Source of the DNA: Verrucomicrobiales bacterium
Lineage (GTDB): Bacteria; Verrucomicrobiota; Verrucomicrobiia; Verrucomicrobiales; SLCJ01
Direction: 5' to 3'
Assembly (NCBI GenBank): GCA_046075565.1
Contig: JBJTQJ010000124.1
Location: 10,953 to 74,952 of the forward strand
DNA length: 64,000 bases
Part shown: positions 57,701 to 60,700 of the stretch, piece by piece
Layout: each line of letters opens with the position of its first letter
Position numbering within the stretch: the first letter of the stretch is position 1
Position numbers: made by a program

Positions 57701-60700
57701 TTCCATGGCCCGGCTCGGAAGCCATTTCCTTAAGTTGGCCAGCGCCTACGAAGAAAAAGCCAAACCCCTGCTGGCCAAAGGCGAAGCTGAAGGAAACCAG
57801 GATGCCCTCTTCGAAGGCCAAGCCATGCAAAAGATGGCCGAAGCCGAATACCTCAAGACCGCCAGCATTTTCGGGCGTCTTCAGGAAAGGTTCCCCGGCA
57901 ATCAACTGGCTGGCCAAGCCGGATTGCGCGCCGGACAGGCCTTCATGCGCGCCCGCCGCGATCAGGATGCCCTCGATGCCTTCCTGAAGGTCGTGGACGA
58001 GGAAAACTACGATGGCGTGAAGATCCGCGCCCAGGCCATGTATTGGGCGGGCATGTGTTACCAGAAACTGCGCCAACAGATGGCCGCCTACGCCATCTTC
58101 AAACGCCTGACCTACGACTTCCCCGAAAGTGAATGGGCCGCCTTCGCCCGCGCCCAGTTGTCGCAGGAGAGCATGATCAACTTGGAAACGAATCTGGAAC
58201 TCGAACGGTTGGAGGGTAAAAAATGAAACTCGAACCACGAATGGACACGAATTCACACGAATTGCTCTTAAAGGATGAAGTGTTTGCCGTCGTCGGCTGC
58301 GCTTTGGATGTTTTGCGTGAACTCGGTCATGGTTTGCATGAGAAACCTTATGAAAACTCGATGGTTGTTGAGTTCGGCAGGCGAGGGATCCCTTTTCAGC
58401 AGCAGCCCCGGTTTCCTATCAACTACAAGGGTGTCCACGTGGGCGAGTATGTTCCGGATCTGATCACGCACGGCCAAATCGTCATCGACACCAAAGTCAT
58501 TGATCGGATCACGAGTCATGAATTAGGGCAGGTCATGAACTATCTGAGGATCACAGGCCTCCGGGTCGCGGTAATCCTGAATTTTAAAAACGCAAAACTG
58601 GAATGGAAAAGGGTCGTTCTATGAAAAAATTCGTGTTCATTGGTGTCCATTCGTGGTTTGCCGTGTCAGCCTTCGCCGCGCCTCTGGACGATCAAATCAC
58701 CGCTTTCAAAGGTGCGGCTGCTCAGACCGAGGCATCGGTTTCCGTTATTCTCCAGTCCGGGCTCAAGGAGGGGCGCAGCGCACAGGCTTATGCCGCGGTC
58801 AAACCTTGGTTGAGCGCCCAACCGGCGCTTTCGCCCAAGGCCATGTTCGAAGCCGGACAGGTCGCGGAAAGGGCAGGGGAGTGGTCCGACGCGGTTGGGT
58901 TTTACCGTAAGTTTCTCAACCAACCGACGCTTGATGCTACGCTGGCCGCCGAGGTCGTGCCTGCCACCTATGTGCTGCTGATCAACCATCTCGCGGATTC
59001 GGAAGGCGCGTATCTCTACATGCGCGAGGCCGGTGATCGCTTGCGCGGATACGGACGCGCCCGGCAGTTCGACACGTGGTTTATCGAACAGGCCAAGTCG
59101 CGCTCCGATGTGCCCGCGCTTTGCCTCCGGTTGTCCAGCATCTTGGCCGAGGACGCTGGCAAAGCCACCACCCATGCCGCCGACCTCGCGTGGGTCTGCA
59201 CCCAGCTTGAAACACTGGCCGCTCCCGATGAGGCGTGGTTCGAAGCGGCCGGGAAGTTGGCCGGATTGCCGAATGTTCCCCCCGCCATCAAAGCCCGCAT
59301 CGGCTGGTCGATGGCCATTCTGCCATTCAGCACGGAAGCCACCGAACTTTTCCGTGCCAAGAAGCCGGTTCCGGAGACCTTGCTGGATAAACCGCGCGCG
59401 GCCGCCGCGGCGCTTTTGGCTGCCTCACCTTACGAGGGCTCGATTTCGGTCGCCCGGGGTTGGATGAACATGAACGAGGGTCATACCCCGAATTTGCAGG
59501 ACTATGTCGCCCAACATCGAGAGTTCAAAACCGCGCCGCTCCTCGCGGCACTCGCGACTTTGTCCCCGGCGCAAGTTCATTCCGTGCTCGTTTCCCGGGG
59601 ATGCCCGCGCGGGCGCCCGATCTCGATGCTATTTTCCACCGCCGAATTGCGGTCGTTGGTCCAGAAGATTCCGTCCGCTTTCAACTCGTTGTTGGCGGTT
59701 GATGTCCCGCTTCTGGATCCCACCCTCACGGTCGAGGAGGCCCGCGCCCTGGCTCCCCATCTCGCCCGCAACCCGCACCCGCAGGCCGCGATCATCCGTG
59801 CCATCGCCGCCGCCGGTTCCCTCGAACCGGAGCTTCTTGTTCCGGCTTTGATCAAGTCCGAGACCTGGCGGTTCAGCACGATCAAAGATGTTGCCAAAGC
59901 GCTGACCGACAACAGGATTGCCGAAGGAAAAGTGAACCAACTTCTCAAGGATGTCCCCGAAGCTGCTCCTGACCCACTGGCTGCCCAAGTCCAGGCCTCT
60001 GCCAAGCCGGAAGACCGACGCGCTGCCTTTGAGAAACTCTCCAAGGAACTTCTTTCACCCTCGCCATCGACCAGCGGGTTACTGCAACGATGGAAGGATC
60101 TTTTCGCCAATGCGCCGGATGCCGAGTTGAATACCATGCTCAAGACCCTCTCCGGGAATTTGCAGGGCGAAGGCGAAATGCTCTTCCGGTTCACTTTGGA
60201 TAACACCACGATTAGCAAGAGCGGCCGCCTGCCTTGGAGAGCGTATTTGCATGGCAACCACTTTGCCTACCACCGGGGGCCGACCCAAAAAGGGGGAGCC
60301 GACTTTCTCGCCCATGTGGAAATTTTGCTGCGCCAGCAAATGCAGGCGGGAACGATCAATGAAACGATTTTCGGAGTCTGGCTCCATTCCAATAATGTCG
60401 GCAAACCGGAATCCAAGGCCTTGTTCAAGGAACTGCTCAATTCGCCGGCCATGGCCAAACTCAATCCGGACTATCTGAAGATCGCCGGCGATAGCAATCT
60501 TTTCCCCGACCTTGTGTTATCGGCTTCCGTCGCGACGGTTTCTCCCGCGGTGATCAGCCGTGAATTGATCGATCTCCCCGGCAACGCGAACCCGGCTCAA
60601 GTGGAAGCCGCCTTCAAGGCCGTGGTCGATCGTTTGGCCACCAACCCACAGCCGGTTGCGCCCATCGCACTCCATAAGGTCGCCCAACTGCCCGAATGGT

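Follow-up and report, generated by a model that had tools for sequence, protein, structure and literature searches.

Correia, ERIC, and RUP sequences are small palindromic intergenic repeats, while integron gene cassettes and mobile insertion cassettes are small, usually one-gene units defined by imperfect inverted repeats. The ends of Mu and Tn7 and the iterons of plasmids are built from sites of ~17-22 bp to which DDE transposases or Rep proteins bind. In 23S rRNA, Coxiella's intervening sequence (IVS) is 428-444 nt long, carries an ORF of the S23p family, and has at its termini a 28-bp stem that RNase III cleaves; according to the same account, 23S IVSs are acquired horizontally and afterwards inherited vertically (PMC4990558). 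The PF13366 family of nuclease-like proteins is entered as “Unknown” in the 2012 survey of PD-(D/E)XK proteins (PMC3424549).

The window (the whole stretch of 64,000 nt analyzed here, from a Verrucomicrobiales bacterium) contains g3364, a PF13366 gene enclosed by inverted arrays of short repeats. We consider it highly probable that g3364 belongs to a family of repeat-armed insertion cassettes with ORF-less derivatives. The fuller proposal, that these cassettes are a mobile element family and that the g3364 nuclease reads and cuts their ends, is put forward tentatively, as a call that falls just short of even. Comparison of genomes shows elements with such ends at stop-start gene junctions, present or absent at orthologous positions, across several phyla.

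Architecture of the g3364 cassette

At each end of the g3364 cassette, which spans ~430 bp, three short repeats form an array, and the two arrays mirror each other (Table 1). Together the arms form an inverted repeat of 31 nt, 90% complementary, with 364 nt between. The cassette begins at the stop codon of the upstream host gene, whose TGA is overlapped by the g3364 ATG, and the g3364 TGA in turn overlaps the downstream ATG. According to the survey's finding, the start codon and first 12 codons of g3364 lie in the left arm; the ATG (58223-58225) is instead 8 nt outside the repeat, and the arm codes for residues 4-14. The companion claim, that the right arm is read as the start of the next gene, proved sound. 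This arm encodes KFVFIGVHSWF, residues 3-13 of the long ORF that follows, where the in-frame ATG at 58621 opens a signal-peptide-like N terminus (MKKFVFIGVHSWFAVSAFA), and the orthologue in G003, a genome of another genus, likewise uses its right arm as N-terminal coding sequence. No Pfam family was found in the first 1000 aa of this downstream product.

Table 1. Positions within the window of the cassettes, their arms, and the host genes
Feature	Position	Strand	Remarks
g3364, GxxExxY/PDDEXK_3 nuclease gene	58223..58624	+	133 aa; PF13366, TIGR04256
Left arm of g3364	58233..58263	+	AAC and three CACGAAT units (58236-42, 58246-52, 58256-62); 10-nt period
Right arm of g3364	58628..58658	+	Inverse of left arm; ATTCGTG (58629-35), ATTGGTG (58639-45, one change), ATTCGTG (58649-55), and GTT
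Upstream host gene	50406..58226	+	2606 aa; TPR_6/YfiO-like matches at C-terminal end
Downstream host gene	58621..63999	+	Open to window end
Second PDDEXK_3 cassette, g3346	23821..24365	-	545 bp; between PSD1-family and DUF1501 genes
ORF-less MITE-like element	47805..47948	-	~144 bp; CACGAAT arms; extent set by loose ends

Assignment of the g3364 product to PF13366 (E = 2.5e-32, 112.1 bits against a cutoff of 22) and to TIGR04256 (7e-35, 119.9 bits against a cutoff of 35) was borne out, and its GxxExxY and PD-(D/E)XK catalytic residues are intact. Residues G37, E40, Y43, D79, K91, Q103, N120, and F121 are invariant in 46 of 46 aligned sequences; in the same alignment, position 89 is D or E and Q103...Y107 is conserved. 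An AlphaFold2 model of the protein has a pLDDT of 92.7 (55 over the arm-coded first 10 residues), with lambda exonuclease, Cas4, and Hjc as its nearest folds. A search of the PDB with the protein sequence returned no matches, comparison with PADLOC and PHROGs gave no family at E <= 0.01, and tblastn against 50,697 phage records gave no match. We know of no 130-aa PD-(D/E)XK protein that acts as a transposase.

The second cassette of the window, g3346, has arms of three CACAGAT/CACGGAT units with periods of 9 and 10. It splits a gene pair, as had been reported, with a PSCyt1/PSCyt2/PSD1 gene on one side and a DUF1501 gene on the other. The spacer of this host pair is 579 nt versus -58, -4, 3, 22, 23, and 134 nt in the six other pairs of this kind, values that rest on crude start calling.

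Arms in the genome and in related bacteria

The genome has five PF13366 genes. Three were said to be armed, and their flank inverted-repeat scores agree (g3364, 47; g3346, 41; g2165, 28), as do those of the two that lack arms (g1830, 16; g1984, 19); in controls of the same geometry (395 placements) the 95th percentile is 24, and a score of at least 30 is reached once. The further description of each arm as three units applies to g3364 and g3346 and fails for g2165, where the left arm has two clear units only.

An arm profile detects 99 sites at E <= 0.05 in this 3.9-Mb genome. They combine into 34 plus/minus pairs, 29 of them without a conserved ORF (135-178 bp) and 3 with PDDEXK_3. All 32 of 32 elements lie outside ORFs, and contig ends carry several arms. 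Two longer pairs, on contigs C21 (1986 bp) and C68 (3390 bp), were rejected as single elements; ordinary genes lie inside them, and the arms are taken to be those of separate elements. As a separate observation, homology between the interior of the ORF-less elements and the ends of the gene is hinted at, no more, by a TTTYRAAGG stretch and by ATCAGAG.

The copy number bears on the simplest account of the locus, in which there is no element and the arms are operators or terminators serving the nuclease gene locally, or a repeat that arose by chance. Autoregulation by the product is conceivable, given that the left arm overlaps the coding start and the right arm comes after the stop; however, most of the ~99 copies have no gene between them, the controls yield such flanks in 1 of 395 placements, and presence and absence differ at orthologous junctions. 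We regard this account as extremely improbable.

Within the order, 44 of 121 genomes have the arm pattern, copy numbers running from 0 to 65, and a reversed-pattern control gives 0. The survey's finding that most PDDEXK_3 genes of relatives are armed gains from a larger sample: flank inverted repeats score at least 30 at 79 of 80 close-homologue loci, against 1 of 395 controls, and many of these 80 loci are orthologous insertions inherited vertically. The same score is reached at 22 of 27 loci in other PF13366 clades (1 of 162 controls; 5 of the 27 lack such repeats) and at 8 of 12 PF13366 loci of the sister genus g12. Farther afield, two of seven distant plasmid- or chromid-borne homologues reach it, one in Bacteroides finegoldii (between radA and a gene for an FAD protein) and one in Sphingomonas (between fabD and fabG).

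Genes of another family, PF05635 (the 23S-IVS protein family), encode no nuclease and are bordered in this genome and order by inverted arms of short tandem units; related arms occur at 22 of 28 PF05635 loci, and 6 are without. Because the ORF-less family, other cargo, and PF05635 genes are all armed, the arms are not specific to PDDEXK_3. Nor does the presence of arms alongside the gene point to matched partners: in five of eight genomes the gene closest to g3364 carries a unit unlike the CRCGAAT arms counted there, and the 13/13 co-occurrence of arms and gene therefore does not represent cognate pairing.

Junction states and cargo

Calling g3364 a cassette implied that gene and arms behave as an inserted unit, and comparison upholds the term: such units fill otherwise tight gene junctions, they can leave a remnant, and a single junction can be empty, ORF-less, or gene-bearing. 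The remnant is in G003, where the junction orthologous to that of g3364 has the same left arm, then a PDDEXK_3 gene with an internal deletion, then the right arm. The ORF-less element of the window is missing at the orthologous junction of G003.

The varied states come from one operon junction examined in 20 genomes of genus g12, of which 5 are empty-like, 5 have ORF-less armed elements, 4 have armed gene-bearing elements, 2 have compound elements with PDDEXK_3, and 4 are unclear. The ORF-less elements at this site have ACAGGAT or GACGAA-type units; ACAGGAT arms also border PDDEXK_3 genes in the genus, and GACGAA-type arms stand beside none of the 12 g12 PDDEXK_3 genes examined. Identical arms enclose a 163-aa protein in G143 and no ORF in G124 and G070, and a different arm type, common to G121, encloses, in G136, a 124-aa protein and, in G133, six ORFs over 3.3 kb. 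For the uncharacterized cargo protein P0121, the protein atlas offered nothing of use. Taken together, the states of this junction are comparative evidence of repeated insertion. Movement nevertheless appears to be rare, because many loci are inherited vertically and the g3364 site is common to another genus. No target-site duplication was readable at 68 cassettes, at 24 ORF-less elements, or at empty/filled junctions, which are too diverged for base-for-base alignment. Contigs of four DNA runs matched against 46500-59500 of the window gave only cross-matches from other arm copies and no empty-site bridge.

Variation of cargo within one arm type, as in the two g12 sets, would be natural if the armed cassette were a general vehicle moved by an unlinked enzyme of the host or of an element. 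PDDEXK_3, PF05635, and small proteins would then all be cargo, maybe kept for the benefit of element or host, for example as nucleases or binders of nucleic acid in conflict systems. Other observations lean the same way: CACGAAT arms bound a 146-aa non-nuclease protein in G040, PF05635 cassettes are analogously armed without a nuclease, and arms are found in 31 of 108 genomes without a close g3364-like gene. Yet no transposase or recombinase was found between arm pairs of less than 4 kb in this genome, and its Y1_Tnp genes (RAYT-like, PF01797) have GC-rich flanking repeats of their own and no arms within 3 kb. Of the genes recognized by Pfam, moreover, PDDEXK_3 is the only one that this arm class carries in the samples examined, and unit types differ within a genome, with six copies changing together, which is not expected from one fixed host reader. 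On balance, we think a general vehicle of this kind unlikely, though far from negligible.

The proposal that the nuclease moves the elements has to accommodate the same cargo, which speaks partly against it. Since non-nuclease cargo sits in arms of the same kind, the nuclease would be unneeded in cis, and it may be simply the commonest passenger.

Proposed recognition of the arms and relation to known systems

The survey's finding also described the arms as iteron-like, and the pattern of conservation agrees with that description: mismatches between the left arm and the right affect 7.1% of unit positions versus 28.2% of spacer positions. All six units share one state, A or G, in 49 of the 62 distinct arm pairs. 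Arm mismatches comprise 108 transversions, against 44 (sense) and 46 (antisense) that are G-U-compatible, with no excess on the sense strand. Unit type tracks protein clade, shifting by transitions among proteins that are 53-66% identical, and units differ between cassettes in one genome (CACGAAT, CACAGAT, CACGGAT). In the FastTree tree that defines these clades, the long branch of three loci is an artefact of their having been read on the wrong strand. The arm-coded N terminus is conserved in the best 120 homologues listed; it is disordered in the AlphaFold2 model and outside the Pfam match, so the protein fold offers no explanation. Conserved units, variable spacers, and concerted change thus fit protein-read sites better than a plain stem.

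Such a stem is central to an RNA-level account, under which the arms would pair at the ends of a transcript, RNase III would free the cassette RNA and part it from the host message, and the units would be incidental. The size and layout resemble those of the Coxiella IVS (PMC4990558), and the PF05635 genes of this genome and order have inverted arms. Minimum-energy and centroid RNA folds of the g3364 cassette do pair its ends, as had been claimed (z -2.6), and all three gene-bearing cassettes run in the direction of the genes that flank them. However, the spacers are not kept complementary (28% mismatch), the preponderance of transversions gives no sign of selection for pairing on one strand, and a stem does not require each arm to repeat one unit three times. 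Where the genes on both sides are co-directional, ORF-less elements are divided between sense (two) and antisense (five), and both 23S genes of the genome are uninterrupted at 2823 nt. An explanation confined to RNA is accordingly rated as distinctly improbable. Folding is better in one orientation for 16 of 19 ORF-less CACGAAT elements (18 of 26 counting both families), a bias given no weight because the copies are kin and their orientation is independent of flanking genes. Rfam has no family between 47500 and 59000, the match to flg-Rhizobiales at 55999-56098 being sub-threshold (28 bits; gathering score, 55).

Under the reading we favor, in which the nuclease reads and cuts the ends, g3364 would be a small insertion element in its gene-bearing form, mobile now or formerly. 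Its ends are ~30-nt terminal inverted repeats, each of three 7-8-nt units one helical turn apart; the element forms seen are ORF-less derivatives of ~140 bp and cassettes of 430-620 bp. Beyond forming halves of a stem, the units may serve as binding sites for a sequence-specific multimeric protein. In PDDEXK_3 cassettes, the proposed reader and cutter would be the encoded GxxExxY protein, a putative minimal PD-(D/E)XK nuclease akin to RecB, lambda exonuclease, and Cas4, and ORF-less and other-cargo elements could be acted on in trans. A cassette inserted in an operon would be co-transcribed, and its arms could then pair in RNA as they do in ORF-bearing 23S rRNA IVSs.

A broader version can be envisioned, which we find rather doubtful. 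GxxExxY proteins at large would be the end-recognizing and end-cutting enzymes of an unrecognized prokaryotic mobile class, with S23p/Avd-like four-helix-bundle proteins as parallel factors that recognize the ends of their own cassettes. Elements of this class would have phased arrays of a short unit at their ends and would home in on stop-start junctions within operons; the classic ORF-bearing 23S rRNA IVSs would belong to it, and it would have spawned large ORF-less families in PVC bacteria, Bacteroidota, and Proteobacteria.

The ~100 small junction insertions with such ends, in this and related bacteria, look like an undescribed family of mobile DNA. The portions of the literature on these protein families, IVSs, and MITEs covered by our searches contain no description of armed cassettes. 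GxxExxY/PDDEXK_3 and the “23S IVS protein” are large, widespread families without an assigned function. If both ride one kind of armed cassette, a single frame would cover the patchy, multi-copy occurrence of their genes, the location of these genes between housekeeping genes (fabD and fabG, for example), the origin of rRNA intervening sequences, and the nature of the “TNxHE” and “IRVHSW” pseudo-peptides that gene ends show in this genome and in its relatives. Testable pairs are formed by each small nuclease with the 7-8-nt unit that it presumably recognizes, and, should the pairing be real, the natural variants (CACGAAT, CACAGAT, CACGGAG, CGCTGAT, and others) would form a series for the evolution of specificity. 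For annotation, the arms are a source of spurious N termini and signal peptides and of broken assemblies.

Among known systems, MITEs are likewise short, ORF-less, present in many copies, bounded by terminal inverted repeats, strictly between genes, and prone to break assemblies; like MITEs with an autonomous partner, the ORF-less elements share their ends with longer gene-bearing relatives. They differ in having no transposase of a known family with the same ends, a 133-aa nuclease in the gene-bearing form, and three-unit ends. REPIN-RAYT systems also place a single small gene between inverted copies of a genome-scattered repeat, with repeat and gene co-inherited, but g3364 is PF13366 whereas RAYT is a Y1 transposase (PF01797), and the arms are not self-palindromic REPs. 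Several short sites in approximate helical-turn phase, inverted at each end, recall Mu and Tn7 ends and plasmid iterons; the arm units, however, are 7-8 nt.

Varied and mostly uncharacterized cargo is shared with integron and mobile insertion cassettes, but the armed cassettes are inserted singly, lie at scattered operon junctions, and have two symmetric ends; neither an attC/attI arrangement nor an integrase was seen, no search being aimed at them. The ORF-bearing 23S IVSs of Leptospira and Coxiella match g3364 in overall plan: an insert of ~430 nt, one ORF of ~120-130 aa, and complementary termini of ~28-31 nt. In contrast to these, the g3364 cassette lies between protein-coding genes rather than in 23S helix 25 or 45, its ORF encodes a PD-(D/E)XK nuclease rather than a four-helix bundle, and its arms are built of a repeated unit that is conserved, with spacers that are free to vary.

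The g3364 cassette and its kin in the genome

Three of the five PF13366 genes in this genome (g3364, g3346 and g2165) are armed, as the survey had found, and g1830 and g1984 are without arms. A repeat search returns the ends of the g3364 cassette as an inverted repeat of 31 nt whose arms are 90% complementary and lie 364 nt apart (see the table). The nuclease ATG overlaps the TGA of an upstream gene of 2606 aa, and its own TGA overlaps the in-frame ATG (58621) of a long downstream ORF, whose first residues, MKKFVFIGVHSWFAVSAFA, are largely arm-coded. The start codon of g3364 had been placed inside the left arm; it in fact lies 8 nt outside the repeat. 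A sub-threshold Rfam match within the 2606-aa ORF (28 bits, where the gathering score is 55) is probably due to chance.

The arms of g2165 are built of CACGGAT units. The cassette of g3346 fills the gap that separates a PSCyt1/PSCyt2/PSD1 gene from a DUF1501 gene, and the reported difference in spacing stands: the gap measures 579 nt, whereas the six other PSCyt/PSD1-DUF1501 pairs have -58 to 134 nt under crude start calling. Upstream of g1830 there is a three-unit array (TTTCGTG TTTCGCG TTTCGTT) with no inverted partner, in the opposite orientation, which is the one usual for a right arm; the clade of this protein otherwise uses CACGGAA/CACGAAA units.

Positions of cassettes, arms and associated features (window positions unless a contig or locus is named; G000 is the genome of the window, other G-numbers are genomes of the order and L-numbers compared loci)
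Feature	Position	Strand	Remarks
g3364, PDDEXK_3/GxxExxY ORF, 133 aa	58223-58624	+	PF13366 E 2.5e-32; TIGR04256 7e-35
g3364 left arm	58233-58263		AAC, then CACGAAT at 58236, 58246, 58256 (direct reading)
g3364 right arm	58628-58658		inverse of left: ATTCGTG / ATTGGTG / ATTCGTG, then GTT (direct reading)
flg-Rhizobiales Rfam match	55999-56098	-	sub-threshold
g3346 cassette	23821-24365		arms of three CACAGAT/CACGGAT units
ORF-less element	47805-47948
Array upstream of g1830	C77 about 1730-1760
Tandem or nested clusters of several elements	G000 C23:4461-4850, C3:32175-32393, C13:2654-3103, C59:36833-37037
Y1_Tnp genes (IS200/RAYT-like)	19884-20228, 1621-1866; G000 C40:14289-14630, C112:43244-43588
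PF05635 genes with arms	G000 C118:16671-16976, C58:1060-1374, C73:37303-37614, C15:4779-5075
Type I methylase (hsdM-like) gene	G000 C73:37053-37864		contains PF05635 cassette
G003 junction	L007 2213-2480 (G003:C28)
G034 g3364-like cassette	C95:26774-27220
G040 cassette, 537 bp	L162 309-845 (G040:C107)		CACGAAT arms identical in type
Sphingomonas parapaucimobilis cassette	NZ_CP155749.1, L182 1444-1905		CGCGAAG arms

The arms recur well beyond these genes. Searching for runs of three CACRRAT-like units at a spacing of 9-11 nt yielded 86 sites, and a profile built from 81 of these finds 99 sites in the genome at E<=0.05. They form 34 pairs of opposite orientation, of which 29 span 135-178 bp, three hold PDDEXK_3 genes (436, 545 and 620 bp) and two are long and taken as accidental; 31 sites are unpaired, several at contig ends. 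No conserved reading frame was found in the short elements, and no Rfam family matches above threshold in window 47500-59000. One element family has CACGAAT units with a period of 10/10, the other CACGGAT/CACAGAT units with a period of 9/10, and both sets of unit types match those of the resident PDDEXK_3 cassettes. In 10 of 16 CACGAAT-family elements with readable ends the core measures 141-142 bp. At the conserved left end of the short elements an AAAGGA resembling a Shine-Dalgarno sequence is followed by an ATG and the arm, an arrangement like that at the 5' end of g3364. The short elements form long hairpins on folding; for the element inside the window z is -5.9 and -4.4. None of the 32 elements (29 short and three gene-bearing) interrupts an ORF. 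Four clusters look as if new copies land beside old ones.

Insertion and decay at gene junctions

The view of g3364 as an insertion cassette with repeat arms, belonging to a large family that also has ORF-less derivatives, is well supported. In G003, from another genus of the same family, the orthologous junction has the same upstream and downstream genes and retains a left and a right arm; between them, some 60 nt of N-terminal coding run directly into roughly the last 66 nt of the gene. The flanking genes are 73% identical, while the left arm is identical. In both genomes the right arm codes the signal-peptide-like N-terminus of the downstream protein. This internally deleted cassette implies that the site was occupied in the common ancestor, and that an ORF-less form arises through internal deletion. 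The ORF-less element listed for the window is absent from the orthologous junction of G003.

The strongest result for insertion comes from the sister genus (g12), where the site of the G034 cassette was compared in 40 other genomes; 19 have both flanks (77-94% identical) on one contig, making 20 with G034 (L183-L203). Five junctions are empty-like, with spacers of 5, 5, 19, 24 and 62 nt and overlapping stop and start codons in two. Another five hold an ORF-less armed element of 159-198 bp; two of these elements use ACAGGAT units, and the other three have GACGAA-based units in arms of two types. Four more junctions carry genes between arms. G034 has PDDEXK_3 there, G143 encodes a 163-aa protein between arms identical to those found on the ORF-less elements in G124 and G070, G136 encodes a 124-aa membrane protein, and the insert of G133 runs to 3.3 kb and contains six ORFs, of which one looks ParA-like by eye. 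G142 (PF13366 7.7e-32) and G146 have tandem or compound inserts in which PDDEXK_3 is one component, and the remaining four junctions have another insert with zero or one arm. Unrelated arm families at one junction, together with empty junctions, mean repeated independent insertion. The junction, a stop-start one, is a hot spot for insertion: its cassettes in the 20 genomes bring at least four unrelated small cargo genes, besides the 3.3-kb insert. Elsewhere in the genus PDDEXK_3 genes are also flanked by ACAGGAT arms; GACGAA arms stand beside none of the 12 such genes examined.

The arms as sites and the question of the mover

Left and right arms were compared in 62 distinct pairs of the CRCGAAT clade. 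They mismatch at 93 of 1302 unit positions (7.1%) and 105 of 372 spacer positions (28.2%); within one arm the units are 92% and the two spacers 65% identical. In 49 pairs the second base of all six units is the same A or G. Of the mismatches, 108 are transversions, and 44 are compatible with G-U pairing in sense and 46 in antisense. A selected stem would predict paired spacers and a wobble preference on the transcribed strand, neither of which is observed. With conserved units, free spacers, one-turn phasing and concerted transitions between elements, the arms look like a repeated, putative protein-binding site. An additional RNA-level role is possible, since the predicted RNA fold of the cassette pairs the arms. 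Unit type tracks protein clade on the tree, an agreement expected from linkage alone and given little weight.

Invariant in 46 nuclease sequences are G37, E40, Y43, D79, K91, Q103, N120 and F121, and position 89 is D or E. The AlphaFold2 model is confident (pLDDT 92.7) except in the arm-coded first ten residues (55) and corresponds to a minimal RecB-type PD-(D/E)XK core, its nearest Foldseek neighbours being lambda and alkaline exonucleases, Cas4 (SSO0001), a restriction-endonuclease-like protein and Hjc at TM about 0.4-0.5. The g3364 protein gave no match in a PDB sequence search and no PADLOC or PHROGs family.

The encoded nuclease is the natural candidate to read and cut the arms, because no other gene recognised by Pfam was found between them, its catalytic residues are intact, and unit types differ between cassettes of one genome. 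The element need not encode it, as the existence of non-nuclease cargo and of PF05635 cassettes shows. The same two facts, the latter cassettes encoding no nuclease, favour movement by an unlinked enzyme with PDDEXK_3 as cargo, an explanation that stays strong beside the nuclease as candidate. Nor is co-occurrence of arm and gene a clean cognate pairing, because in five of eight genomes checked the g3364-like gene has CGCAGAT, CACGGAT or CACAGAT arms instead of CRCGAAT. All 13 genomes with close g3364 relatives (E<=1e-38) have at least four CRCGAAT arms, and 31 of the other 108 genomes carry such arms too. Across the order the pattern occurs in 44 of 121 genomes (0-65 copies, patchy within genera; reversed-pattern control 0) and PF13366 in 87.

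The G040 cassette carries an AT-rich 146-aa ORF (P0121) with no Pfam, PADLOC, PHROGs or atlas match. Y1_Tnp genes are poor candidates for the mover: they carry long GC-rich inverted repeats of their own on either side (flank score up to 82), have no arms within 3 kb, and appear to form a separate REP-like system.

Breadth and parallels with known inserts

The best 120 homologues listed are 66-100% identical to g3364 and nearly all begin with (EPR)M[DN]TNxHEL, the arm translation. Their labels are Verrucomicrobiota, Kiritimatiellia, Victivallales, Planctomycetota, Armatimonadota and Flavobacteriales, although metagenome-bin labels can be wrong (Klebsiella and Bifidobacteriaceae on two of 80 close loci). 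That armed PDDEXK_3 genes are common in relatives is borne out: the best flanking inverted repeat scores at least 30 in 79 of 80 species-representative loci of close homologues against 1 of 395 controls, many of these loci sharing flanking genes and so representing one inherited insertion instead of independent cases. Among the best PF13366 matches of other clades from the order the count is 22 of 27 against 1 of 162, with units including CACAGAG, CACGGAG, CGCAGAG, CACGGAA and CGCTGAT; further PF13366 loci of the sister genus give 8 of 12, and for distant homologues (28-34% identical) that reside on plasmids or chromids it is 2 of 7, both with no control set.

Both positive plasmid-borne cases come from complete records of isolates. 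The Bacteroides finegoldii cassette lies between radA and a FAD-dependent gene, and the GxxExxY cassette of Sphingomonas parapaucimobilis in the fabD-fabG gap of the fatty-acid synthesis cluster, where the annotated CDS continues through the right arm. The other five loci comprise a one-unit repeat in Treponema, direct rather than inverted arrays in Prevotella and Fusobacteria, and two with nothing. At Prevotella nigrescens (L177, three ACAAAT units) and the Fusobacteria plasmid (L176), the downstream array may belong to an adjacent cassette as its left end. None of 50,697 phage records matched.

A full-text literature search found no description of these cassettes; a 2012 survey lists PF13366 as 'Unknown' (PMC3424549), and a preprint on RT classification mentions it in an annotation, in passing. 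A parallel within the genome is a set of four PF05635 (23S_rRNA_IVP) genes with inverted arms of short tandem units at a 7-8-nt period (AGAAGAC; GTCAAAG/GTCGGAAA; a long purine-rich repeat; GAACATT, about 20 copies each side). Across the order (L130-L159) 22 of 28 PF05635 loci score at least 30, against 0 of 168 controls. The hsdM-like gene looks disrupted, not cleanly interrupted: by eye about 110 residues are gone between the DPACGSGG motif and the WVQH region, including the expected NPPF site. The genome's own 23S genes contain no inserts. The Coxiella IVS is an insert of 428-444 nt that carries an S23p ORF and has a terminal stem of 28 bp, which RNase III cuts; it was acquired horizontally and then retained vertically (PMC4990558). 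In size and layout the g3364 cassette is an object of this kind, with a different ORF and at a different sort of site.
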